Source of the DNA: Verrucomicrobiia bacterium
GTDB taxonomy: Bacteria > Verrucomicrobiota > Verrucomicrobiia > Limisphaerales > UBA1319
Direction: 5' to 3'
Assembly: GCA_963664225.1 (NCBI GenBank)
Contig: OY760937.1
Span: 1,760,001-1,824,000, forward strand
DNA: 64,000 bases
Shown here one piece after another: positions 1,502 to 40,285 of the stretch (position 1 is the stretch's first letter; each line of letters starts with the position of its first letter). The notes beneath the pieces were generated by a model. That model was not told the DNA's origin. It worked only from the letters and a program-made list of their open reading frames with translations, and searched no databases. The position numbers were made by a program, and so were the translations under genes.

Positions 1502-1743
1502 GAATAAGATTGGCGCGATTAGCGTGTTCGGGGCGCAGGGGTGGTAGTGGACGCGGCGGCGGGTTCCAGCGCCTGCGGATTGGAAATCCGCGATACGGTT
1601 GGAAACCTGCGCTACGGGTCGGCCCGGATCGGTGCGCAGAAGAGTGGCGCGATAAGCGTGTTCGGGGCGCAGGGGTGGTAGTGGAAGCGGTGGCGGGTTC
1701 CAGCGCCTGCGGATTGGAAATCCGCGATACGGCAGCAACGGTG

Positions 1744-2706
1744 TCATGGAGCAACACAGAATCTGGGATCTTTTAGGGCATGATTCATCAATACGATGAG
1801 TTTCCGCATCACTGCTGTCAGCGCCACTTTGGGCTTCTTGCCCGCCGCCCGCAGCCTCTTATAAAAGGCCTTGAGGATGGAATTGCAGCGCACCGCTGCC
1901 ACGGAGGCCATGTAGAGGGCGCGGCGCACCCCGGTCCGGCCGCCACCAATGTGACGCTGGCCTTCCCAAGGGCCGCTCTGGCGCACCCACGGGGCCAGCC
2001 CCGCCAGGGCTGCCGCCTGGCCCCGGTTGAGGGTTCCCAGTTCGGGCATCTGCGCCACTACCGTCACGGCCGTCAGCATCCCCACGCCGGGAATTTCCGC
2101 CAGGCGGGTGACTTGTTTTTGCTCGACGGCGTGGCGGGCCAGGGCGGCGGTTAATTCGGCCAGCACTGCGGCCAAACGGCTTTCCAGATGCCGTATCAGC
2201 TTGGCGTGTTCGGTGCGGACGAAGGGTGAGTCGTGGTGTTCGGCCTGATTTTTGGCGATGGTCAGGAGATCTTTGAGTTGTTCGCGCCAGGTCACCAGGG
2301 CGGTGAGCTCAGTGTGGGCTGGCGTCGGGGCGGTGGTGGCAGCGGGCTCCAGGGCCTTGCCGAAGGCGCTCAGGCTGGCAGCATCGATCGGATCGCTCTT
2401 GGCCCGCTGGCCGGTGGCGCGGGCGAAGGCACGGGTCTGGGCCGGGTTGACCACGCTGACGGGTAAACCGGCCGTGTGAAGTGCCGCCACGACGGCACGC
2501 TCATAGCCGCCAGTGGCTTCGAGGATCACGTGGGCACCGGGCACAGCACCCAGACATTGGACCAGTTGTGTGTGCCCCGCCGCATCGTTGGTCACGTCCA
2601 GGAGCCGTCCGGGAAGGTGAAGTTGGAGAGTGGCCTTGGCGACGTCCAGACCGACATGGACAGGGGCGGATTTTTCAGTCATAATATTAAAGTTGTTCGG
2701 ACTCAT
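1744..2706 (-). CDS. IS110 transposase (DEDD RuvC-like + Tnp20 domain)
   Basis: GLDVAK, LEATGGYE, KSDPIDA, IPGVG, GLAP..RQSG and VRRALYM motifs. Start placed at ATG 2706 by analogy with copy B. Confidence 0.95.
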   Translation of the reverse strand: MSPNNFNIMTEKSAPVHVGLDVAKATLQLHLPGRLLDVTNDAAGHTQLVQCLGAVPGAHVILEATGGYERAVVAALHTAGLPVSVVNPAQTRAFARATGQRAKSDPIDAASLSAFGKALEPAATTAPTPAHTELTALVTWREQLKDLLTIAKNQAEHHDSPFVRTEHAKLIRHLESRLAAVLAELTAALARHAVEQKQVTRLAEIPGVGMLTAVTVVAQMPELGTLNRGQAAALAGLAPWVRQSGPWEGQRHIGGGRTGVRRALYMASVAAVRCNSILKAFYKRLRAAGKKPKVALTAVMRKLIVLMNHALKDPRFCVAP

Positions 2707-2875
2707 TCTTGCAAATACGAGCTGGCGTTGTAACACGCCGCTCTGGTAACGGTTCGAGTTTCGGACAAAGGCGAGCGCGATTCATGCTGCCGTACGGTCT
2801 GGCTTTCACCAGACCAAGATTGGAACGAACACGCGTCCGCCGTCCCTTCCCCGCCTGCAGGCGGGGAAGGGACAC
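2707..2875 (-). ncRNA. Predicted bridge RNA of IS110 copy A
   Basis: 5' hairpin at 2842-2873. Target loop: LTG 2817-2825 and RTG 2787-2794 around the stem GGTCTGG/CCAGACC. Donor loop: LDG 2745-2753 and RDG 2708-2713. Transcript ends approximate. Confidence 0.82.
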
Positions 2876-3119
2876 CACTTCTTTCTTGTTCAACGCGAAC
2901 CAACAAACAAGTGGCAAATTCAAACATACAAGGTTGGAAACCTGCGCTACGGGTCGGCCCGGATCGGTGCGCAGAAGAGTGGCGCGATTAGCGTGTTCGG
3001 GGCGCAGGGGTGGTAGTGGAAGCGGTGGCGGGTTCCAGCGCCTGCGGATTGGAAATCCGCGATACGGGTCGGCAGAAGCCTGATCTTGCAAATGGGCCAT
3101 GATCACCTAGCTTTGGGGG

Positions 3120-29351: not shown

Positions 29352-30452
29352 TTACTTAATTCCGGATTGCAGCCACTTCGCCGCTTTTCTATGCGCGGCG
29401 GCGAACGGGAATCGGCCCAATTGGTCCATCGTCAGCCATCTCATTGACGAATCCCGCAGAGTTGGAGGGTGAGAGACGCATCCGCGAAACACATGCATCA
29501 CAATCCGATGATGCGTAATGGAGTGTCGGATCTCTCCCAGCTTGTGTCCCAGTTCAGGACGGAACCCGAGGATTATTTCCACCACTGCCAGTGATTTGTC
29601 CATGCCAGAGGAGGAAGACTCCACACTTGGAAACTCCCATAAGTGTGCATTTACGCCATTTCCGGAGCGTTGACAGGCCAGCACGCGGCCATTGTTTTCG
29701 ATAATCCAACATACCAATTTTTTATGGACAGTTTTGGTCCTGATTTTGGGCGGTGGAATAATCCCAGTCAGACCGGACAGATAAGCGAAGCAAAAACGTT
29801 GCACGGGACATCGGTCGCACCGGGGCTGGCGAGGTGTGCAGATAAGAGCTCCCAGTTCCATCAACGATTGATTCAAATGACTGCATTGAAGACCCATGGG
29901 CGACTTCCGGCGATGCGCCGCCTCCACCAACTCCGCCGCTCGCAGCCAGAGAAATTGGTTTGTTTCTTTCGCGCGCGGATCCGTCCGAATTCCCAGAATC
30001 CGGCATAAAACCCGGGTGACATTGCCATCGAGAATCGGTTCCGGCTGGTTAAAGGCGATGCTGCAGATCGCTCCAGCGGTGTATCGACCGATGCCGGGCA
30101 ACGCGAGCCAGCCTTCCAGGTCCATGGGCAAACGGCCTTCCTGCGTTTCCACCAGCCATTGCGCGGCGCTTCGCAGGTTTCTCGCGCGGGTGTAATACCC
30201 CAGTCCCTCCCAAAGCTTGAGCACCTTTTCTGCAGGGGCGGAGGCAAGCGCCTGCACCGTGGGAAAGGCCTTAATCCAACGTTCCCAATAAGGCACCACG
30301 GCGACCACCTGGGTCTGCTGCAACATGGCTTCTGACACCCATATCGCATAGGGATCGCGCGTTCGCCGCCAGGGCAAGTCCCGAGCGTTGTCGGAATACC
30401 AATCCAGTAATTTGGAAACGATGGCAGCGATTTTTCTTTGATCCGGCGTCAC
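29352..30452 (-). CDS. mutY: A/G-specific adenine glycosylase MutY
   Basis: RDLPWR, VSEAMLQQT, WEGLGYY, LPGIGRYTAGAI, DGNV and CTPRQPRCDRCP..C motifs; start estimated. Confidence 0.95.
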   Translation of the reverse strand: MTPDQRKIAAIVSKLLDWYSDNARDLPWRRTRDPYAIWVSEAMLQQTQVVAVVPYWERWIKAFPTVQALASAPAEKVLKLWEGLGYYTRARNLRSAAQWLVETQEGRLPMDLEGWLALPGIGRYTAGAICSIAFNQPEPILDGNVTRVLCRILGIRTDPRAKETNQFLWLRAAELVEAAHRRKSPMGLQCSHLNQSLMELGALICTPRQPRCDRCPVQRFCFAYLSGLTGIIPPPKIRTKTVHKKLVCWIIENNGRVLACQRSGNGVNAHLWEFPSVESSSSGMDKSLAVVEIILGFRPELGHKLGEIRHSITHHRIVMHVFRGCVSHPPTLRDSSMRWLTMDQLGRFPFAAAHRKAAKWLQSGIK

Positions 30453-30516
30453 ACGCACCACATACTGAGAAAAAACCCTCCTACGCAAGAGAAGAACCAC
30501 AGTTGAAGAACCAAAG

Positions 30517-30590
30517 CCACAGATTTACACAGATCCGCACAGATTCATAAAAAAGAAATTGATTCCGTTTGTGCTGTGCCAATCTGTGAG
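30517..30590. repeat. CACAGAT x3 (10-nt period) and partial inverted copy
   Basis: CACAGAT at 30518, 30528 and 30538; CTGTG..ATCTGTG at 30574-30588. Confidence 0.75.
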
Positions 30591-30628
30591 GGTATGCGGC
30601 TATTCCCGTGGCTGTCTTTGCGGCTGAT

Positions 30629-31009
30629 TCAAAAAACCATTCGTTTGAACTCCACTTTCGTTTTGCCAAAATTGATCAACAATCCGACTTTGATTCCGGT
30701 GGCTTTGAGCTCGTTGAGCAACTGCGCTTCGTCGGAAGGTTGGTATTCCACCGCCACTTTCAATTCCACGAGCACGCGTTGCTCCACCAGCAAATCGGCC
30801 GCGTAATCGCCCACACACACGCCTTTGTAACGAACCGGAATGGGATGCTCCAACTCCGCGTTGCGTCGGCGCATTTTCAACTCCACCTGCATCGCCCGCT
30901 GATAAACCTTCTCCAGATACCCATATCCCAATTCCCGCTGCACATCGAATGCAGCGCCGATGATATCGCGCGTCACCGGATCCCTTTCCGTTTGTGATTC
31001 TGTGTTCAT
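30629..31009 (-). CDS. GxxExxY family protein (PD-(D/E)XK nuclease-like)
   Basis: IIGAAFDVQRELGYGYLEKVYQRAM, YAADLLVE..VELK and GLLINFG motifs. The ATG lies inside a CACAGATGAACACAGA repeat. Confidence 0.93.
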   Translation of the reverse strand: MNTESQTERDPVTRDIIGAAFDVQRELGYGYLEKVYQRAMQVELKMRRRNAELEHPIPVRYKGVCVGDYAADLLVEQRVLVELKVAVEYQPSDEAQLLNELKATGIKVGLLINFGKTKVEFKRMVF

Positions 31010-31179
31010 CTGTGGCCAAATCAATCGCTCATCACCGGAGCTTTCTCCGTTTTCATCTCCATCCGAACAGAAGCATGATAATCTAATTGCCAATTAATTG
31101 AAATGGCAATCCCTGACGGGCGCATTTTTGTTTAAATTATGGCCGGACTTTTCTACATTGAGGCGTCATTGCTGAACTT

Positions 31180-32145
31180 GTGAAACCACTAACGAGCCAT
31201 ACTTGCCTGCTGAACGGGGACCAGGCCGCGATCTTGAAAGATTATTTGGAAGATCACGGATTCCTGTTTCGCGAGGTGCCGTACGCCCGCTTCGCCGCGG
31301 CCAACGACCTGGTCAACGTGGTCTATTACCAGAGCGGCAAGCTCGTCATCCAGGGCAAGGGAACACAGGAATTCGTCGAGTTCATCCTCGAGCCTGAGAT
31401 TCTCAAGGAAGCCAAAGTGGGCTATGAGAAGGTGCTTAATCCCGACCTACTTCTGCCTCGTGTGGGCGTGGACGAAAGCGGCAAGGGCGATTTCTTCGGG
31501 CCCATGTGTGTCGCGGGCGTGTATGTGAACGAGGCCGTCATCAGGGCGTGGGAGGACGCCGGCATCCGCGATTCAAAGCTCATTTCCAGCGACAAGAAGA
31601 TTGCCGAGCTGGCCAAAGTCATTCGCGAAACCCCGGGCTGCGTTCAGACCGTGGTGCCGATTGGCAACGAGGCCTACAACCGGTTGTATGCGAAAATGAG
31701 ATCGGTCAACGCGTTGCTCGCCTGGGGTCATGCCCGCGTGATCGAAAACCTCATGGGCCTGCGTTATAAAATGCAGCCGCCGCCCGTGCGCGCCATCAGC
31801 GATCAGTTTGCCAGCGAAAAAAGCGTGGTCTCGAAGGCCATGATGAGCATGGGCCGGGAGATCGAACTGGTCCAGAGGCACAAGGCTGAATCTGATATCG
31901 CGGTCGCCGCGGCCTCGATTCTGGCGCGTGACGAATTCGTGAGCCGACTCGCGCGCATGGAAAAACAGTTCGGCGTGAAATTTCCAAAAGGCGCTTCACC
32001 GGCCGTGGAAGCCGCCGGGCGCGCCTTCATCGAAAAGCACGGCGCCGAAAATCTGCCCAAAGTGGCCAAGATGCATTTCCGCACCTCCTTCCGCATCCAG
32101 GGCCTGCCCGAGCCGCCGAAATACGAGTGGAAGAAGAAGGGGTAA
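31180..32145 (+). CDS. rnhC: Ribonuclease HIII
   Basis: TBP-like N-domain (YQSGKLVIQGK); GVDESGKGDFFGP, DSK, DQF, VAAASILAR and AKMHF motifs. Confidence 0.95.
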   Translation: MKPLTSHTCLLNGDQAAILKDYLEDHGFLFREVPYARFAAANDLVNVVYYQSGKLVIQGKGTQEFVEFILEPEILKEAKVGYEKVLNPDLLLPRVGVDESGKGDFFGPMCVAGVYVNEAVIRAWEDAGIRDSKLISSDKKIAELAKVIRETPGCVQTVVPIGNEAYNRLYAKMRSVNALLAWGHARVIENLMGLRYKMQPPPVRAISDQFASEKSVVSKAMMSMGREIELVQRHKAESDIAVAAASILARDEFVSRLARMEKQFGVKFPKGASPAVEAAGRAFIEKHGAENLPKVAKMHFRTSFRIQGLPEPPKYEWKKKG

Positions 32146-32166
32146 TGCCTGAGGACGTGAAAAGTA

Positions 32167-32323
32167 AACCGCTAACTCGCGGGGAATCACTAATGGATTA
32201 AAACCACTTTTTATTAGTGGCAATTAGTGTCAATTAGCGGTTTCAATCCGTGTTCATCTGCGGCATCTGCGGATTATACTTCCTTGTTTTTCTTTCCTCC
32301 GCGCCTCTGTGTCTCAGTGGTTA
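32167..32323. repeat. Cluster of periodic triple-motif repeats between convergent genes
   Basis: AACCGCTAA..CACTAAT with inverted ATTAGTG/ATTAGTG/ATTAGCG (32213/32223/32233); ATCCGTG-ATCTGCG-ATCTGCG; CTCCGCG-CTCTGTG-CTCAGTGGTTAA. Confidence 0.72.
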
Positions 32324-32874
32324 ACCCGCCCCTCCCGCTGCCACAGTTCCCAATAATACAGGGCCACAACCACGAGCGAATGCCGGATCTTCCCTTCGCG
32401 CACCAATGCCGGAATGGAGTCCACAGGGACCAGCCGCGTGACGAGGTCTTCGCCGTGGTCAAATTCAGTGGGATGCGTCTCCCGGCAGTTCCGCACGAAA
32501 ACCGTGTGGCAGGTGTTGCTCATGATGGCCGGATTTGGAAAGACCTGGCCTATGATCCCGGCGGATTCGCCGGTATAACCCGTTTCTTCGCGCAGCTCCC
32601 TCAATCCGGCGGCCAGCGGTGACGCATCCTGCGGATCGATCATTCCCCCTGGAATCTCAAGCTCCACCGTGTTGGTGCCGTGGCGGTACTGCTCGATCAT
32701 CACCATTTCCTCCTTGGGCGTCACCGCGACCACGTTCACCCAATCGACCGTGTCGATGACATAGAAATCGTGACTGGCGCCCGTGCGGGGAGAGACTTTG
32801 CGGTCGGAGCGGATTTTGAAGATCGAATAATCCGCCAGGGCGCGGGAGCCTTCTTTTGGCCAGGGGCGAATCAT
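32314..32874 (-). CDS. NUDIX hydrolase (ADP-ribose pyrophosphatase-like)
   Basis: QYR..LEIPGGMID..AAGLRELREETGY Nudix box. Confidence 0.92.
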   Translation of the reverse strand: MIRPWPKEGSRALADYSIFKIRSDRKVSPRTGASHDFYVIDTVDWVNVVAVTPKEEMVMIEQYRHGTNTVELEIPGGMIDPQDASPLAAGLRELREETGYTGESAGIIGQVFPNPAIMSNTCHTVFVRNCRETHPTEFDHGEDLVTRLVPVDSIPALVREGKIRHSLVVVALYYWELWQREGRVNH

Positions 32875-33077
32875 AATCCTTTTTCCTTTGCGGCCCAACC
32901 CTCGCGCATGAGCTTCAACAAATGCGCCATGGCCTCGACCTTTGAACAACCCTTTTTGGCGGCAAGCTGGTCGGCGCGCTTGTCGAGTTGAGCGGCCATC
33001 CCGGCGGTTTTATCCGCCGGACAGCCCATTTGCTTTAAGAGCTCTGAAAGTTCAGTGACGTCCAAGGGAAACTCCAT
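32871..33077 (-). CDS. Small hypothetical protein
   Basis: 68-aa helical ORF with ATGA overlap onto the NUDIX gene. Confidence 0.7.
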   Translation of the reverse strand: MEFPLDVTELSELLKQMGCPADKTAGMAAQLDKRADQLAAKKGCSKVEAMAHLLKLMREGWAAKEKGL

Positions 33078-33117
33078 TTTTGTGCGTCACAGCCATCGAT
33101 TGACGGTTGGCCTGCGA

Positions 33118-33750
33118 CTACTTGACCGAGTCCGCAGGAACGATCTTCACGCTCTCGAGACCTACGCGCGTCAGCGGAACGCTTTTCTCACCGGAATTTC
33201 CGACACCCACCGGGGAGTCCCCGAGCTTGCCCAGAACGTCGTCGCCCTTGATGACATGCCCGAAAGCGGTGTATTGACCGTTCAGGAAGGAGGCATCACC
33301 CAGACAGATGAAGAACTGGCTGCCCGCGCTGTCCGGGTTTTGGGAACGGGCCATGGAAAGGACGCCCCGCTCGTGTTTGCGATTGTTGAACTCGGCCTTG
33401 ATCTTGTAACCGGGGCCGCCGGTGCCCACGGCCGGGCTGTTGCTCTTGCTCAGGGGATCGCCGCCCTGAATCATGAATCCCTTGATGATGCGATGAAAGG
33501 CGGTTCCATCGTAAAAGCCCTGATTGGCGAGCTTCTTGAAATTCTCAACCGTGTTGGGGGCGACATCGGACCAGAATTCGATGACCATTTCGCCTTCGGC
33601 GGTTTTAAGTATGGCGACTTCGTTGGTAGTTGCTGTGCTCACAATATTAGTTTCTTTTGATGTGGACGTGGTGGATTGAGGCCCCTGACTGCATGCGGTC
33701 AGCAGTCCGGCCATAAGTCCCAATAAAACAAGGTTCAAACCGTATTTCAT
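33118..33750 (-). CDS. Cyclophilin-type peptidyl-prolyl isomerase (lipoprotein)
   Basis: FHRIIKGFMIQGGDP, GTGGPGY, SMARS and SAGSQFFI motifs; LTAC lipobox. Confidence 0.95.
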   Translation of the reverse strand: MKYGLNLVLLGLMAGLLTACSQGPQSTTSTSKETNIVSTATTNEVAILKTAEGEMVIEFWSDVAPNTVENFKKLANQGFYDGTAFHRIIKGFMIQGGDPLSKSNSPAVGTGGPGYKIKAEFNNRKHERGVLSMARSQNPDSAGSQFFICLGDASFLNGQYTAFGHVIKGDDVLGKLGDSPVGVGNSGEKSVPLTRVGLESVKIVPADSVK

Positions 33751-33857
33751 GGGTTCATTATTCGCACATGCGCGGCCCCTTGTCACGCGCCGAACGAGAA
33801 CAGGAGATTGGAGAAAGCGCGGGAGAAAGCTTCGGCAGGCGAAAACCGTCCGGAACA

Positions 33858-33919
33858 AACATGGAAGAGCAGGATTGGGGGATGGGATTTGATTCAACGC
33901 CTAAAGCGTTGGGATTTCC
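33858..33919. repeat. Composite repeat (GGAT triple motif + CAACGC/GCGTTG hairpin), second copy at 63665-63736
   Basis: AACATGGA..CAGGAT..GGAT followed by GGGATTTGATTCAACGC(C/T)TA(A/C)AGCGTTGG(G/A)ATTTC at both loci. Confidence 0.78.
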
Positions 33920-33963
33920 GGGGGAGGAGGGGCGGCACGCGAAGGGGGGAGGAGCAACGGTAT

Positions 33964-34905
33964 TTAATTTGAGAGTGCAAAATCTGGGTTTTTGAGGATT
34001 TGGTTCATCAGGACAATGAGTTTGCGCATGACGGCGGTGAGCGCGACTTTGGCGGGCTTGCCCGCCAATCGGAGTCGTTCGTAGAACTCCTTGAGTTGGC
34101 GATTGCAGCGCGCAGCCACCAGGGCGGCCATGTAGAGGGCACGTCTAACGGCGGCTCTTCCGCCACCGATGGAGCGGCGGCCTTGCCACTGGCCGCTTTC
34201 TCGAGGATGTGGAGCCAGTCCGGCCAAGGCGGCGGCCTGCCCCCGATTGAGCGTGCCCAACTCGGGCAGCTCAGCCAAAACCCCCAAGGCGGTAATCGCG
34301 CCCACCCCGGTGATGGCTTCGAGTTTTTTTGCGCGTTCATCCAGTTCTGTGGTTTTCTGGCGCAGCGCTTTGAGTTGGGTCTCGATATGCTCCAGATCCC
34401 GTTCCAATCGACGCAGCAGGCTCTGGGCCTGGCGGCGCAACTTGGGCAGCGTGAGGCGTTCGATCTGATGGCGCTGGCTAATAAGCAGATCAAGGATCTG
34501 AGTGCGGCGGCGAACCAGTTCGGTCAACTGCTCCTCCACCTCGGAACGCGCGGGCGTGGGTTTGGGGGCGAAGGCCTGCCCATAGGCGGAGAGGACGGCG
34601 GCATCTATACGGTCGGTTTTGGCCCGTTGTCCCTGGGCGCGGGCGAAATGCCGGACGCGGGCGGGATTGATGATGCTGACAGGAATGCTGGCATGATGGA
34701 GGGCGTCAGCCACCTCACGCTCGTAGCCGCCGGTGGCTTCACAGATGACGTGAGCGCCGGGATGCTGCGCCAGGAGTTTGACGAGCTGGCGATGACCGGC
34801 GGCGGTATTGGGCAGATGGTGGGAACGACCGGCCAGTTGGAGATCAAGACTCAGCTTGGCAATATCCAAACCAGCGTAGATAGTGGTCATAGTGTTCTGG
34901 CTCAT
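33964..34905 (-). CDS. IS110 transposase
   Basis: GLDIAK, CEATGGYE, KTDRIDA, GLAP..RESG and VRRALYM motifs; clearly homologous to copy A but diverged. Confidence 0.96.
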   Translation of the reverse strand: MSQNTMTTIYAGLDIAKLSLDLQLAGRSHHLPNTAAGHRQLVKLLAQHPGAHVICEATGGYEREVADALHHASIPVSIINPARVRHFARAQGQRAKTDRIDAAVLSAYGQAFAPKPTPARSEVEEQLTELVRRRTQILDLLISQRHQIERLTLPKLRRQAQSLLRRLERDLEHIETQLKALRQKTTELDERAKKLEAITGVGAITALGVLAELPELGTLNRGQAAALAGLAPHPRESGQWQGRRSIGGGRAAVRRALYMAALVAARCNRQLKEFYERLRLAGKPAKVALTAVMRKLIVLMNQILKNPDFALSN

Positions 34906-35072
34906 TCTTGTAAATACGAGCAGGCCTTGGTGGGCCGCTCAAGCAACGGTTCGAGTTTAGGACACAGGCACGAACGGCTCTGGCTCCTCGCGCATTTGGT
35001 TAAAAACCAATGCAAGAAGGAAACGAGCTCGTCCGCGCCACTGTCCTGCCGCCTGCAGGCGGCAGGACAGTT
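34906..35072 (-). ncRNA. Predicted bridge RNA of IS110 copy B
   Basis: 5' palindrome at 35041-35070; LTG 35015-35023; RTG 34984-34989; LDG 34942-34950 (9/9 to donor); RDG 34907-34912 (6/6). Ends approximate. Confidence 0.83.
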
Positions 35073-35238
35073 CCATCTATTCCGTCTTTTCAAACAAAAC
35101 AAGAATAGATGGAAAATCAGATACAAGGAAGGAAGGAAACCGCTAATGGGAGGGAATTGACGCTAATAGGAAGGGAATGGGGATTTGGAAAATGATATTT
35201 AGCCTGATTTACAGTTTCTCTGCGAGGCGATGGCCGAG

Positions 35239-35258
35239 CCGGCTGAAAGCCGGGACTC
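35239..35258 (+). repeat. REP-like hairpin forming the 5' exon of the group II intron
   Basis: CCGGCT-GAA-AGCCGG then GACTC; continues as CATAC at 35879 after intron removal. Confidence 0.75.
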
Positions 35259-35878
35259 GTGTGTCTGGCAGGTATTGGATCTATTGGGATGAAAGGAGCC
35301 CAACGGGGGCGGTGACGCCAACCGTAGCGGTAGGCCAGGTTCGATCCGCGAGGGTCGGGCGCGAAAGGGCCGAGAGCAAAGGCGCGACCGTAGGAACACG
35401 AACGGGCAGTGAGGCCGGGTGCGTGGGTTAGCTGGCGAGTAACGGCGAAACCCAAAGGTCATCCAAACGCATCAGGTAGAGCCCGGCGGCGCGCGCCGAC
35501 AGAGTCAATACCGACCCAGAGAGATCTGTCCCGTGAGAGCGGGACAGAAGTCAGCAGAGGCCATAGTAGTGATGAGGCCCGGTGAAAGCCGGGAGGAGCG
35601 AAGGGCCGAAGGAACAAACGGAGCCAACCAAGGCGTTGGACATGAGGACGAGTGATGGAATGAAGCAACAGGACGCAACAATTACGGTTACCATCCTGGC
35701 ACTGGCAAACGGCGGGCCCAACGCTGGAAGCGCCCAACCCGTCGAAGCATTCCGGGGTCACATGTCTGCACGACTGGGAAGGAAGAACTCTGAATGTTCC
35801 AACCGCCGGATGCGAGAAAACCGCACGTCCGGTGGTGTGGGAGGGTGCCGGGGCGAAATCCCTGGCACCCGACCCGAT
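35259..35878 (+). mobile_element. ORF-less class IIC group II intron (620 nt)
   Basis: 5' GTGTG; DII/DIII AGAAGTCAGCAGAGGCCATAGTA..GAAGGGCCGAA; short DV AACCGCCGGATGCG..CGCACGTCCGGTGGT with CGC triad; DVI GGGTGCCGGGG..CCCTGGCACCC; 3' end ACCCGAT. No RT ORF. Confidence 0.9.
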
Positions 35879-36059
35879 CATACTCCGGAACGCCGGGCCG
35901 GGGGACCCGGCCTACAAGTTGATGCGCCGGATAATGCGATGGACTGGTCGGATGAAGCTGGGAGACCAAACCAAGGAAAATACGGCAGAGTTTAGGTCAG
36001 GGTTTCCACCGCCCCTTAAATTGCCTTTCGCAATGGTCCTGATGCGGTATTCTTGAGGC

Positions 36060-37718
36060 GTGTCTGATACGCAAACAAAACAACACCCGGTGCGGATCGG
36101 TTTGATCTCGCTGGGTTGCGCAAAGAATCTGGTGGATTCGGAAGTCATGCTCGGCTCGCTGGCGCGGGATGGCATGGAGATCACCAATGACGCCTCGCTG
36201 GCCGATGTCGTCATTGTGAACACCTGTTCGTTCATCGACTCCGCCCAGGAAGAGAGCGTGGATACCGTGCTCGCCGCATCCCAAACGCGGGATGCGGAAT
36301 ACCCGCATCAGGCCGTGATCGTGGCCGGTTGCCTGCCGCAGCGTTTTCAAAAAGAACTGCCCGGCCTGTTGCCCGAGGTGGACGCCTTCATGGGTCTGGA
36401 CCAGGTGCCGCAGGTGGCCCAAATCGTGCGCGAAGCGCTGGCCCACCGGTCCGCGCGACTGGCTGCGCCAGCGGAACGCAAGACACGTTCAAAGAAGCTC
36501 ATACAAAAGCATTTGGAGGCATTGGACAAGGCGCATCCTGAAACCGAAGACCGCCCCATGCGGGCGGGCGCCACTTCCACGAAAACCAGCAAAGTCAGTT
36601 TGCCCGAACCGGTGAATCTGGTCAGTCCCCGTTCGGTCTATGTGCCGGATTACAATACCCCACGGTTCCGACTGACGCCGCGGCATCTGGCGTATGTGAA
36701 GATCGCCGAGGGCTGCAATCATCCGTGCAGTTTCTGCATCATTCCGCGCATTCGCGGATCGCACCGCAGCCGTGTGCAATCGGATATTGTGGCCGAGGCA
36801 CGCCAGTTGATTGCCTCGGGCGTGCGGGAGCTGAACCTGATTTCGCAGGATACCACCTATTACGGTCTGGATTTGCGGCCCGGACGCGATGGTTCCATCT
36901 CCGCCCCGGAAAAATTCACCGCCGCGAACCTCTCGCTTCCTTCCGGCTCGTCCACCCTCCCGACCTTACTGCGGGAATTAAACGGCATCGAGGGCGATTT
37001 CTGGATCCGGCTCCTCTACACCCATCCGGCGCATTGGACCCCGGAATTAATTGAAACCATCGCGGCCTGCGAAAAGGTGGCGCGGTATGTGGATATGCCC
37101 CTGCAGCATATTCATCCGGTGATGCTTGAACGGATGCGGCGCGAAACCACCCGCCAGTATATTCTCGATCTGATCGAGAAAATCCGGGCCGGAGTTCCGG
37201 GCATTGCGCTGAGAACGACGTTCATCGTCGGTTTCCCGGGCGAAACGTCGGAGGCCTTCCAGATGCTTCTGGACTTCATTCGTTCAGCGCGTTTCGAGCG
37301 GTTGGGGGTGTTTGCCTATTCGCAGGAAGATGGGACGCGCGCCTCGAAAATGGAGGGGCAGATTCCCGTTTCGGTTAAAAAGCAACGTCACCAGCAGGCC
37401 ATGGCCGCGCAATTGGAGGTGGCCCGCACGGTGTCTGAATCGTTCGTCAACCGCACCATCCGCGTGCTGGTGGAGGACGAGGCCAGCGCGAAAGAGTTAC
37501 AGCAGGCCCGGGTGCAAAGCTGGGAACATGGCCTGGTCCGGGGCAAGGACTACCATGAAAGCCAGCTCAAAGGGCTTTATCTGGTGGCGCGCGGCGATGC
37601 GGACGCGCCGGACATTGACGGCCGGGTCTATGTGCGTGGCAAGCTGCCCATGGGCGAATTTGCCCAGGTAAAAATAATCGGCCACACCGATTACGATCTC
37701 ATTGCCGAACCGGCCTGA
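36060..37718 (+). CDS. rimO: Ribosomal protein S12 methylthiotransferase RimO
   Basis: SLGCAKNLVDSE, NTCSFI, GCL, YVKIAEGCNHPCSFCIIP and DAPDIDG motifs. Confidence 0.96.
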   Translation: MSDTQTKQHPVRIGLISLGCAKNLVDSEVMLGSLARDGMEITNDASLADVVIVNTCSFIDSAQEESVDTVLAASQTRDAEYPHQAVIVAGCLPQRFQKELPGLLPEVDAFMGLDQVPQVAQIVREALAHRSARLAAPAERKTRSKKLIQKHLEALDKAHPETEDRPMRAGATSTKTSKVSLPEPVNLVSPRSVYVPDYNTPRFRLTPRHLAYVKIAEGCNHPCSFCIIPRIRGSHRSRVQSDIVAEARQLIASGVRELNLISQDTTYYGLDLRPGRDGSISAPEKFTAANLSLPSGSSTLPTLLRELNGIEGDFWIRLLYTHPAHWTPELIETIAACEKVARYVDMPLQHIHPVMLERMRRETTRQYILDLIEKIRAGVPGIALRTTFIVGFPGETSEAFQMLLDFIRSARFERLGVFAYSQEDGTRASKMEGQIPVSVKKQRHQQAMAAQLEVARTVSESFVNRTIRVLVEDEASAKELQQARVQSWEHGLVRGKDYHESQLKGLYLVARGDADAPDIDGRVYVRGKLPMGEFAQVKIIGHTDYDLIAEPA

Positions 37719-37878
37719 TTGGGTATAGTCTTGCGCGGTTAATGTCTTCAGGCCACGCTGCATACTTAAAGCCGGGTGAAGGACTGGTACTTTTGCGCCA
37801 GTCCCGGTGGTTGGCTTTCACACCTTTCCCCTCGCTCAGGCGCGCGATTCATAACCCATCGGATGAAGGACGAATCGC

Positions 37879-38451
37879 GTGAATTTACCCAATCAACTCA
37901 CCGTTTCGCGTCTGGCGCTGACTGTGGCTTTTCTGGTCTGCCTGATGTCCCCGATGCCCTATGGCCAAACGCTGGCCCTGGTTTTCTTTGTGGCTGCGAG
38001 TCTGACGGATTATTACGACGGCAAGATCGCGCGACGCGACAAGCTCATCACCAACTTTGGCATTCTCATGGATCCGCTGGCGGACAAAATCCTGATCTGC
38101 TCGGCGTTCATCGCATTTGTCGATCTGCGCCTGATGCCCGCGTGGATGGTGGTGGTCATCGTCTGCCGCGAATTAATCATCACCGGATTGCGCTTGCTGG
38201 CGGCCTCCAAACAGGTGGTGCTGGCGGCTGAAGGCTACGGCAAACATAAAACCGCCTCACAGATCACCGCCATCATAGCCATGCTGGTCTTCATCAGTTA
38301 CGCACAATGGGGCGGCTGGTCCCGGGCGATTTTCGACCCATGGATCGACTTCTTCCAAAACGCCATGAAATGGGTCGCGGTCTTCCTCACGCTCCTTTCC
38401 GGTGGAATGTATCTCTGGCGCAACCGCGCCATGTATCTGGCGGATCTGTAG
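37879..38451 (+). CDS. pgsA: CDP-diacylglycerol--glycerol-3-phosphate 3-phosphatidyltransferase
   Basis: NLPNQLT and TDYYDGKIARR..TNFG..DPLADK motifs. Confidence 0.95.
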   Translation: MNLPNQLTVSRLALTVAFLVCLMSPMPYGQTLALVFFVAASLTDYYDGKIARRDKLITNFGILMDPLADKILICSAFIAFVDLRLMPAWMVVVIVCRELIITGLRLLAASKQVVLAAEGYGKHKTASQITAIIAMLVFISYAQWGGWSRAIFDPWIDFFQNAMKWVAVFLTLLSGGMYLWRNRAMYLADL

Positions 38452-38461
38452 GAATCCGCCC

Positions 38462-38998
38462 ATGAACACTCCCCCATCCCGAACAACAACGGATGCGGTC
38501 ATTCTTTGGGCCGCTCAAGGCTTCGGTATCGGTCGCATTCCCGTAGCCCCCGGCACATGGGGATCGCTCCTGGGCGCGGGCTGGCTCCTGATCTTGCTGG
38601 CACCGGGCCAGCTCTGGATTTACATCGCGGGTCTCATTTTAAGCAGCTTTTTCTCCGTCTGGGTCTGCGGGCGCGCCGAAAAAATCCTCGGCCTCACGGA
38701 TCCCGGTTCCGTGGTCATGGACGAAATCATCGCCGTGCCCCTGTGCTTTGGGGCTTGGATCCTGCTCCAGATGAGCCGGACAGGTCATATTCCGAATCCC
38801 GGCGCGCTATTGGAGCCAAAAAACCTGCCGGTATTCATCGGACTGGTCATCGCCTTTCGTTTTTTCGATATCGCCAAACCCTGGCCTGTGCGCCAGAGCC
38901 AGTGTCTGCCGGGCGGTTGGGGCATTACCATCGACGATCTCCTGGCCGCGCTGTATGTAAACCTAAGCTACCTGATTGGGGTCCTTCTTTTTCGATAA
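38462..38998 (+). CDS. pgpA: Phosphatidylglycerophosphatase A
   Basis: APGTWGS, DPGSVVMDE, FRFFDIAKPWP and GWGITIDDLLA motifs. Confidence 0.94.
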   Translation: MNTPPSRTTTDAVILWAAQGFGIGRIPVAPGTWGSLLGAGWLLILLAPGQLWIYIAGLILSSFFSVWVCGRAEKILGLTDPGSVVMDEIIAVPLCFGAWILLQMSRTGHIPNPGALLEPKNLPVFIGLVIAFRFFDIAKPWPVRQSQCLPGGWGITIDDLLAALYVNLSYLIGVLLFR

Positions 38999-39047
38999 TT
39001 CCTTGCGCGGCGATTGACAGACTGTCCCGGTGGTTCAGACTGTGCGG

Positions 39048-39752
39048 ATGCGCGCGAACCAGCTTCCAAAGGCGGTGATTTTCGACATGGACGGCGTTTT
39101 GGCTGATTCCGAGCCGATGATTTGCGCCGCGGCCTGCGCCATGTTTCTCGAACGCGGCCTTGCGGTGCAACCGGAGGATTTTTCGCCGTTTGTTGGCACG
39201 GGCGAGAACTCCTACCTCGGCGGCGTTGCCAGAAAATATCAATTTCCCATCGATATTCCCGCCGCCAAAAAGCGGACCTACGAAATCTACCTGGAAATGG
39301 TGCCAGGTCATTTGAAGGCATTTCCCGGGGCTGAAAAACTGGTGCGGGATTGCCGGGCGGCAGGATTGAAGATCGCCCTGGCCTCCAGCGCCGACCCCAT
39401 CAAAATCGAGGCGAATCTGGCAGCCATCAACCTGCCGCCCGGGCTTTGGGATGCGGTGGTTTCCGGCGCGGATGTGAAGCATAAGAAGCCGGCGCCCGAT
39501 CTCTTCCTCGAAGCGGCGCGGCGGTTACAGGAACCTCCGGAACGCTGCGTGGTGGTTGAGGATGCCATGCACGGCATTCAAGCGGCGGTGGCGGCGGGCA
39601 TGCGTTGTGTGGCGGTGGCGCACACGTTTTCGCACGGTCAATTATGCGGGGCGGCCCTGGTGCGCGCCACTGTGGCGGAAATCAGCCTCGATGATTTGCT
39701 GAACGTGGACTCCAATGGGACGCCTGCAATCGAAGTCACCCAACCGATCTGA
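39048..39752 (+). CDS. HAD-superfamily phosphatase
   Basis: FDMDGVLADSE, KPAPD and VVEDA..GIQAA motifs. Confidence 0.92.
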   Translation: MRANQLPKAVIFDMDGVLADSEPMICAAACAMFLERGLAVQPEDFSPFVGTGENSYLGGVARKYQFPIDIPAAKKRTYEIYLEMVPGHLKAFPGAEKLVRDCRAAGLKIALASSADPIKIEANLAAINLPPGLWDAVVSGADVKHKKPAPDLFLEAARRLQEPPERCVVVEDAMHGIQAAVAAGMRCVAVAHTFSHGQLCGAALVRATVAEISLDDLLNVDSNGTPAIEVTQPI

Positions 39753-39766
39753 CCGCAAACCGCCGA

Positions 39767-40285
39767 CTACTTTCTTAAGGGACGCCCGGAATTGCCATCC
39801 AGCTTTTCTGGTTGTTCCGGTTCCAGTAACACGGCCAGGCAGGCCAGCCATGCCCCCAGACTCACGGTAACAAGGCAAAACAGAACCATCCAAAAACCGC
39901 TCAGGGTCCCGGCACGAACCAGCATCCACGACAGCGCCAGCAGCAGCACATCGGCCGCAAACAGGGAGAGTTGGACCAAACCGATGGGAACCGGGGACGC
40001 TGCGGGGCGAACTTCAGGTTGGGATTGAGGCTTCGCCGTTTTATCTTCGGCGGATTTGATACCGGTCCTGAACAAGTCCGGGGCCACCGGTGGCGACGTA
40101 ACGTCCAGGGGCAGTTCATCGCGCGCAGGAATCCCGTTGCCTCTGAGCAGGCTGCCCAGGCCCGGGGTCACCGAGGTGAGATCCAATTGATCGGACGCAG
40201 GCGCGGCACTCCCCTCCGGACTGGCGTTCTTGCGCGAGCCTTCCAGCAGATTTCCCAGACTTCGTCCCAAAGCGGGTTTTGTCAC
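39767..40285 (-). CDS. Hypothetical membrane protein with ParB-like N-terminal peptide
   Basis: KPALGRSLGNLL N-terminus, Pro-rich linker, two C-terminal TM helices. Confidence 0.68.
   Translation of the reverse strand: MTKPALGRSLGNLLEGSRKNASPEGSAAPASDQLDLTSVTPGLGSLLRGNGIPARDELPLDVTSPPVAPDLFRTGIKSAEDKTAKPQSQPEVRPAASPVPIGLVQLSLFAADVLLLALSWMLVRAGTLSGFWMVLFCLVTVSLGAWLACLAVLLEPEQPEKLDGNSGRPLRK

Follow-up and report, generated by a model that had tools for sequence, protein, structure and literature searches.

Anatomy, guides and target sites of an IS110-group insertion sequence with a left-end bridge RNA in a Verrucomicrobiia genome

Among the closest described systems to the element presented here is IS621 of Escherichia coli (Durrant et al. 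2024, PMC11208160; Hiraizumi et al. 2024, PMC11208158). According to these accounts, IS621 has a CT core, a long left end (LE) and a very short right end (RE), and its LE encodes a bridge RNA. The architecture of bridge RNAs is described as a 5′ stem-loop followed by target-binding and donor-binding loops (PMC11208160). In IS621 the 9-nt left guides for the target (LTG) and the donor (LDG) are located on the 5′ sides of these loops and the right guides (RTG and RDG) on the 3′ sides, and the 9-nt RDG is able to pair discontiguously with 7 donor bases. The element has a sub-terminal repeat of the ATA../..TAT type, and functions have been assigned to the DEDD and catalytic serine residues in its recombinase (PMC11208158).

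Two other systems are relevant. ISPpu10 of Pseudomonas putida is described as targeting many copies of one intergenic stem-loop repeat, with the stem-loop as a 5′ extension (bioRxiv 10.64898/2026.03.19.712850). Elements of the IS1111 group share a DEDD recombinase and RNA guidance with the element considered here, and are reported to carry their bridge RNA in a long RE and to have sub-terminal inverted repeats of 7–17 bp (PMC11208160).

Here we describe an insertion sequence (IS) located within the window, a stretch of 64,000 nucleotides of a Verrucomicrobiia genome. Each of the features of IS621 listed above recurs in it: the same protein family with DEDD and serine motifs, the CT core, the long LE and very short RE, an LE-encoded RNA with a 5′ stem-loop and target and donor loops, the placement of the four guides, the potential of the RDG for discontiguous pairing, and the type of sub-terminal repeat. 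Unlike IS621, it has an additional hairpin upstream of the 5′ stem-loop, a Verrucomicrobiota host, and a pyrimidine-rich target. Membership of the IS1111 group was considered and rejected, since the RE is 9 nt long and the RNA lies in the LE, with matches to its covariance model upstream of the gene in all ten copies in the genome. The data are best read together as an intact, probably autonomous IS110-group element with a bridge RNA in its LE, most likely inserted at a half-match site and using a donor that is conserved across its clade (probability about 0.9).

The element, its ends and its recombinase

The genome is a single contig of 5.78 Mb and contains ten IS110 genes, which fall into two families of five. 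In family B, the copy in the window (B1) is nearly identical to B2 and B3 and shares 92% protein identity with B4 and B5. Proteins of family A are 55% identical to those of family B, and one member of family A also lies inside the window. The ends were mapped by aligning copies together with 600 nt of flank. The five family-B copies, in their different contexts, define a complete IS110-group IS of 1171 bp at 33955–35125 on the minus strand, and the placement of the element in the preliminary description holds. All ten copies start with CT|TGTAT and finish with ACCGTTG|CT. When RE and LE are joined across the core (RE...ACCGTTG + CT + TGTAT...LE) the resulting 14-nt junction is identical in 5/5 B and 5/5 A copies, extending to the whole genome what had been noticed for the two copies in the window. 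Empty sites had been proposed as a check on the boundaries, and paralogous ones are available: about 30 unoccupied copies of the repeat into which B2 and B3 inserted have just one CT, which confirms the boundaries and the core of B1. The LE extends for 220 nt ahead of the ATG and the RE for 9 nt past the stop codon, the IS110-group layout of a long non-coding LE and a short RE. As is also typical of this group, terminal inverted repeats are absent and the CT core is present on both sides of the element and singly in the empty site. The coordinates of all features are collected in Table 1.

Table 1. Features of the window copy (B1) and the location of the family A copy in the window.
Feature	Position	Strand	Basis
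Right CT core copy (AG on + strand)	33953..33954	-	Alignment of 5 copies with flanks
RE; tip ACCGTTG is the left donor (LD); only 9 nt, 3′ of the stop codon	33955..33963	-
IS110-family recombinase, 313 aa, intact	33964..34905	-	PF01548 + PF02371, NF033542, IS621/ISCro4 alignment
Donor-binding stem-loop: outer stem CTCG/TGAG, LDG 34942–34950, inner stem, RDG 34907–34915	34901..34955	-	R1 model positions 85–139
Target-binding stem-loop: outer stem, LTG 35015–35023 (TTTCCTTCT), inner hairpin, RTG 34984–34991 (GCGAGGAG)	34967..35039	-
5′ stem-loop of bridge RNA, 13-bp perfect hairpin, loop TGCA	35041..35070	-	Fold
Additional hairpin between LE tip and 5′ stem-loop	35072..35113	-	Fold and homologues
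LE tip TGTATCTG..., the right donor (RD); with RE makes ATAC...GTAT sub-terminal inverted repeat	35114..35125	-
Left CT core copy	35126..35127	-	Copy alignments; metagenome contigs holding the IS cease matching at 35127
Copy A, family A, 1195 bp, recombinase 55% identical, in REP-like hairpin repeat	1736..2930	-

For the locus of B1 itself, no empty-site allele was found among 30 relatives; these have no intergenic synteny with it, and their sole match is to the neighbouring PPIase gene (query positions about 17–530 of 853). Contigs of four sequencing runs compared with the locus contained neither a circle junction nor a clean empty site. Two other candidates were examined. Own-genome paralogues of the right flank of B1 are members of a different repeat, and their similarity to the flank ends about 25 nt short of the insertion point. 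In addition, a peat-metagenome contig that joins 33913 to 35218 (skipping 1304) was not counted because only 29 letters lie on its shorter side and these are within a repeat.

Near-identical counterparts of the element (window 33950–35127) are present in metagenome contigs from peat (run X5) and landfill (run X6), differing at 6/1120 and 11/1024 letters, respectively; their match ends at the LE boundary (35127), and other sequence flanks the LE side. A dispersed repeat with the core CCAACGCTGTAGGCGTTGAATCAAATCC, present in about 40 copies, is represented by a partial copy at approximately 33860–33930, 25 nt from the right boundary of the IS, and full copies of it elsewhere include a CCCGGG-rich palindromic part. 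On the other side, about 75–750 nt beyond the left boundary, is an ORF-less group II intron on the plus strand (35342–35510 and 35801–35878; Rfam RF02001 at 84 bits and RF00029 at 44.7 bits), with only short ORFs between the two parts.

The recombinase of B1 matches Pfam families PF01548 (E 1.7e-19) and PF02371 (E 1.4e-19), and scores 202 bits with the NCBIfam model NF033542 (‘IS110 family RNA-guided transposase’), for which the cut-off is 140. Matches to PDB structures of ISCro4 (9t56, E 4.7e-39) and IS621 (8wt6, E 7.6e-39) extend over residues 10–306. The protein contains the motifs GLD(14)IAK, CE(56)ATGG, KTD(98)RID(101)A, and PRES(237)G. By comparison with IS621, D14, E56, D98, and D101 correspond to the DEDD residues and S237 to the catalytic serine of the Tnp domain, and this combination of a RuvC-like DEDD domain and a Tnp domain with a conserved serine is that of the IS110 group. 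It had been suggested that the start codon directly follows the RDG. This is true of the window copy, where an ATG is located at 34905–34903, but B4 and B5 have AAG in that place, and the true start codon may be the second ATG, 15 nt downstream.

The left-end RNA and its guides

The LE folds into four elements, consisting of two hairpins followed by two stem-loops with large internal loops (34967–35039 and 34901–34955). Leaving aside the first hairpin (35072–35113), whose structure is retained among homologues and whose sequence is variable, this fold is the architecture of a bridge RNA. A covariance model, R1, was built from B1, B4, and A2. With a limit of E<=0.01, this model returned 91 matches from 89 sources, made up of the ten loci of this genome and 79 homologous loci in other genomes; 87 distinct places from these matches were taken into the guide analysis. 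One homologue in another genome (L064) has two R1 matches (825–977 and 2208–2360) that are 1383 nt apart, apparently tandem copies.

Across 69 distinct rows of the alignment, 95% of cells are paired and 31/35 pairs have changed on both sides, percentages that are inflated towards structure by the fitting of the alignment to R1. The observed pairing was reached by 0/500 shuffles, and slid controls pair at 28–41%. In the target loop, pairing amounts to 97% in helix 1 and 91% in helix 2, with two-sided changes in 22/23 pairs; in the donor loop, it amounts to 93% in helix 3 and 97% in helix 4 over the same rows. The 5′ stem-loop and the pair of stem-loops that each have an internal loop, with covariation in this model-fitted alignment, are what is expected of an IS110-group RNA. 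The palindrome around CGCCTGCAGGCG is present in both A and B with different arms, and also in homologues. Families A and B share the same loop architecture and have near-identical donor-loop motifs; their stems vary in a compensatory manner and the motifs flanking the loops are kept, as had been proposed from the two copies in the window.

Searches for other known signals were also conducted. An Rfam search of window positions 30000–40000 at E<=1 assigned no family to the LE, its hits being confined to the neighbouring group II intron, and a consensus scan of 33800–35300 for sigma-70-like promoters found no site on the minus strand. The sequence TTGCTT-17-TATTCT, which would span the RE-LE junction, weakly suggests a candidate promoter: its -35 element agrees at only 3/6 positions, and TAnnnT occurs at the place of the -10 element in 16/42 distinct LE starts.

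By homology with IS621, the element would excise as a circle in which RE and LE are joined across one CT, and the 5′ ~225 nt of the element would be transcribed as the bridge RNA. The donor loop would pair with the RE-CT-LE junction, the LDG (ACCGTTGCT) with the bottom strand and the RDG (AUUUACAAG) with the top strand, and the DEDD/Ser recombinase would exchange strands at CT. Transcription, circle formation, and catalysis are here read across from the known system. The guides themselves fit this scheme. The LDG (34942–34950) matches the RE end plus CT at 9/9 positions, and the last six bases (34907–34912) of the RDG, ATTTACAAG, are the reverse complement of CT and the first 4 bases of the LE (6/6), reproducing the matches first reported; such complementarity of the donor loop to the RE-core-LE junction is a property of the IS110 group. 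The donor guides of family A are LDG ACCGTTACC (7/9) and RDG ATTTGCAAG. Their sole departures from those of family B are at positions 7 and 9 of the LDG and the replacement of an A by G in the RDG, where the G would form a G.T wobble.

Conservation of the donor extends far beyond this genome. Every R1 match has an LDG of the type AC[CAG]G[TC]TG. Outside this genome, both ends were located in 49 places, with the junction being exactly ACCGTTGCTTGTAT in 22 of them and ACAGTTGCTTGTAT in 18. In these 18 places the LDG is altered to match, and the variants ACAGTTG and ACGGTTG track variants of the RE. Clade-wide conservation of the donor agrees with the published account, in which the second loop is far more conserved than the first across bridge RNAs (PMC11208160).

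Target guides were compared with the flanks of homologues, a comparison on which the preliminary description had placed weight. The LE boundary was located by CTTGTAT (>=6/7, unique best) 40–130 nt upstream of the R1 match, leaving 22 of the 87 places without a left target (LT) and 11 without a right target (RT). Between RTG and right flank, cognate pairs match at 4.37 of 6 non-core positions and non-cognate pairs at 1.84 (41 distinct RTGs); between LTG and left flank the values are 4.06 of 7 non-core positions and 2.21 (36 distinct LTGs). The covariation is strong, as permutations reached the observed match in 0/10,000 cases for each arm and the figures are unchanged without the loci of this genome. 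The signal comes from LT positions 4–7 and RT positions 3–7. Match rates at RT positions 3–7 are 0.93, 0.98, 0.85, 0.73, and 0.61, and those at LT positions 1–3 are only 0.33–0.42, LT rates being lowered by several LTGs that the model alignment places one column off. The match up to RT position 7 together with the low rates at LT 1–3 indicates that the effective guide is shifted towards the right arm, unlike IS621, for which a 4-nt RTG is described.

These data also bear on whether the LE structure acts as RNA guide at all. It could instead be a DNA or mRNA-leader element, serving as a recombinase binding site or in translational control, with the likeness to flanks reflecting a site preference of the protein; the outer stem of the donor loop does overlap the start-codon and ribosome-binding region. 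This is highly improbable given that the two sides of the loop each vary, position for position, together with the flanking DNA of the respective homologue (in sense orientation for the 5′ side, as the reverse complement for the 3′ side), and that the LDG follows the RE in its variants, a pattern of covariation that defines bridge RNAs in the published work (PMC11208160). Protein domains, fold, covariation, and guide matches all agree with an IS110-group element whose left end encodes a bridge RNA, as originally proposed.

Target sites and natural retargeting

Three target-loop variants are present in the genome, all on one donor. B1-3 have LTG TTTCCTTCT and RTG GCGAGGAG, B4-5 have LTG CCATTCCCT and RTG GTCGGGAG, and family A has LTG TTCCAATCT and RTG (G)TACGGCAG. 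Their matches to the flanks range from 6–8/9 on the left and 7–8/8 on the right in family A, to 7/9 (seven contiguous) and 6/8 in B2 and B3, and 6/9 and 6/8 in B4 and B5. In the window copy, the RTG as its reverse complement (CTCCTCGC) matches the flank CTCCTCCC at six contiguous positions (CTCCTC), as had been observed, and at 7/8 overall. A resemblance of the LTG to the left flank had also been reported. The fit to TTCCTTCCT is poor (6/9 in register, with mismatches at -1, adjoining the core, and at -3), a resemblance within a pyrimidine tract and no convincing match. Complementarity between target loop and insertion site is found for the family as a whole; in B1 only the right arm fits.

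The nine covarying positions were scored at all 538,889 CT sites of the genome. B2 and B3 score 8/9, and 164 of these sites score as high. B1 scores 6/9, a value that 9,063 of the sites reach. Among homologues, 8/30 guide pairs score 6 or less, so the score of B1 is low, though not unheard of among natural pairs, and to call its site ‘off-target’ is a judgement and no proof. For IS621, complementarity to the core and one arm is reported to suffice for recombination in vitro and to explain many off-target insertions (bioRxiv 10.64898/2026.08.31.748434). The site of B1, with the core and right arm only, is most likely an off-target insertion of this half-match type.

It could also be that B1 entered a good target and that a later change in the left flank, by slippage or insertion of 1 nt in a (TTCC)n tract, hid the LTG match. 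The flank GGTTTCCTTCCTTCCT does hold the initial 8 nt of the LTG (TTTCCTTC), displaced by 4 nt from the register, and, as read from the sequence, deletion of one C adjoining the core would yield an LTG match of 8/9. We consider such a history improbable: no empty-site or ancestral allele of the locus was found in the 30 relatives, among own-genome paralogues, or in contigs of the four runs, and contigs of two isolate-like runs span the junctions unchanged (X4 at the RE; X4 and X2 at the LE). Insertion at a half-match site is the preferred reading.

Exact TCCTTCTCCT sites number 51 in the genome, about 30 of which are in one hairpin repeat family. B2 and B3 are located inside this dispersed repeat, unoccupied copies of which read ..ACT[CT]CTCCTT-CT-CCTGGGGGAGAAGG.., and the repeat (..TCCTT-CT-CCTGGGGGAGAAGG.., about 30 copies) is the preferred target of the B1-3 subfamily. 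B1 itself sits outside it. Copies of the repeat (..CAATACT[CT]CTCCTTCTCCTGGGGGAGAAGG[CT]CGGGATGAGGGCG..) are often clustered, for example at 157688–158377 and 4439585–4440293 of the genome. Family A inserts into REP-like arrays of GCAGAnnTCCnnTCTGC hairpins, which occur at 1962–1964, 2141–2142, 2220–2224, and 3670–3672 kb. Targeting of GCAGAnnTCCnnTCTGC hairpin arrays by family A and of the CCTTCTCC-TGG-GGGAGAAGG hairpin repeat by B1-3 resembles the behaviour described for ISPpu10, and repeat targeting here matches this known habit of IS110 elements. The two cases differ in geometry, as the hairpin of the B1-3 target is on the right-target side with the core in its 5′ arm, and the stem-loop of ISPpu10 targets is described as a 5′ extension. 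Unlike the targets described for ISPpu10, the site of B1 has no such hairpin.

Families A and B had been presented as a natural retargeting pair within one genome, with the same donor and target guides that differ completely. They do have different target loops on the same donor, but the difference is incomplete (LTGs share 6/9 positions, or 4/7 of those outside the core, and RTGs 3/8), and family B itself provides a better pair. Identity between B1-3 and B4-5 is 93%. Between B1 and B4, 81/1171 positions differ, with none in LE positions 1–86, and the differences affect 11/18 guide positions compared with 70/1153 others (6%; odds ratio 24, Fisher p 1.9e-9). On this evidence, B1-3 and B4-5 are a sharper natural reprogramming pair than A and B.

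B2 (~1738.4–1739.6 kb, L002) carries seven B4-type alleles at element positions 782–817, a conversion tract between the subfamilies, and a TAC-to-TAG nonsense change. A variant cluster as in B2 recurs at window positions 34309–34344 in contigs of runs X2 and X4. B3 (~3172–3173.2 kb, L003) has an 18-bp in-frame deletion of 6 codons at element positions 463–480, in the region of the DEDD domain. The nonsense codon in B2 and the deletion in B3 leave B1 as the only intact copy of its subfamily.

Relations between the families and wider significance

The identical junction in A and B raised the suggestion of cross-mobilisation. In its strongest form this would mean that both target guides chose the site of B1 and that A and B are a functional pair, each recognising the ends of the other. 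Several observations are compatible with this: the 14-nt junction is common to all ten copies, the few departures of the A donor loop include a change that would form a wobble, the bridge RNA of IS621 is reported to act in trans (PMC11208160), and ISPpu10 is reported to mobilise LE-cargo-RE constructs in trans (bioRxiv 10.64898/2026.03.19.712850). It is nevertheless doubtful. The LTG of B1 fits its flank at only 6/9 positions with a mismatch next to the core, 0/5 B copies are at A-type sites and 0/5 A copies at B-type sites, and identity between the recombinases is only 55%, with RNA stems that also differ. Furthermore, the 14-nt donor, earlier taken to tie A and B to each other in particular, is the same 14-mer in 22/49 homologous elements of other genomes, and its conservation across the whole Verrucomicrobiota IS110 clade deprives the shared donor of any special A-B meaning.

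No chimeric A/B elements are present among the ten copies, which within each family are equal in length except for the 18-bp deletion of B3. There are also no orphan bridge RNA genes, as R1 finds exactly ten in the genome, all of them next to a recombinase gene and upstream of it. With no copy at the target of the other family and no orphan bridge RNA, cross-mobilisation between A and B is unsupported, though not refuted. A limited literature search on cross-reactivity and orthogonality of bridge systems returned nothing on co-resident natural families that share a donor, which does not establish that such reports are absent. The preferred reading remains that of an intact, probably autonomous element with its own bridge RNA, at a half-match site, and with the donor of its clade.

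Nothing in these findings is new in kind. Bridge RNAs had been established in 2024 on thousands of elements, as had the fact that their target loops covary with insertion sites. What the findings offer is a compact set of natural data from a single closed genome, in which three target-loop variants share one conserved donor. This set includes two subfamilies that are 93% identical with differences concentrated in guide segments, and a clear canonical target, a repeat that provides dozens of unoccupied sites. The location of B1 at a site that fits the right arm only is consistent with the half-match route by which off-target insertions have recently been proposed to arise. Engineers of bridge recombinases could take an interest in this clade, in which the effective guide is longer on the right and shorter on the left.

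A broader, speculative and rather unlikely extension is that A, B, and much of the Verrucomicrobiota clade form a single donor-compatibility group, in which any bridge RNA would recognise the ends of any member. If this were true, families could mobilise each other's defective copies, such as B2 and B3, and the ends of A and B could recombine through donor-donor (half-match) reactions, giving rise to inversions or deletions between unlike IS copies. Turnover of the target loop, seen here as change at 11/18 guide positions compared with 6% elsewhere, would then be the sole barrier between lineages.
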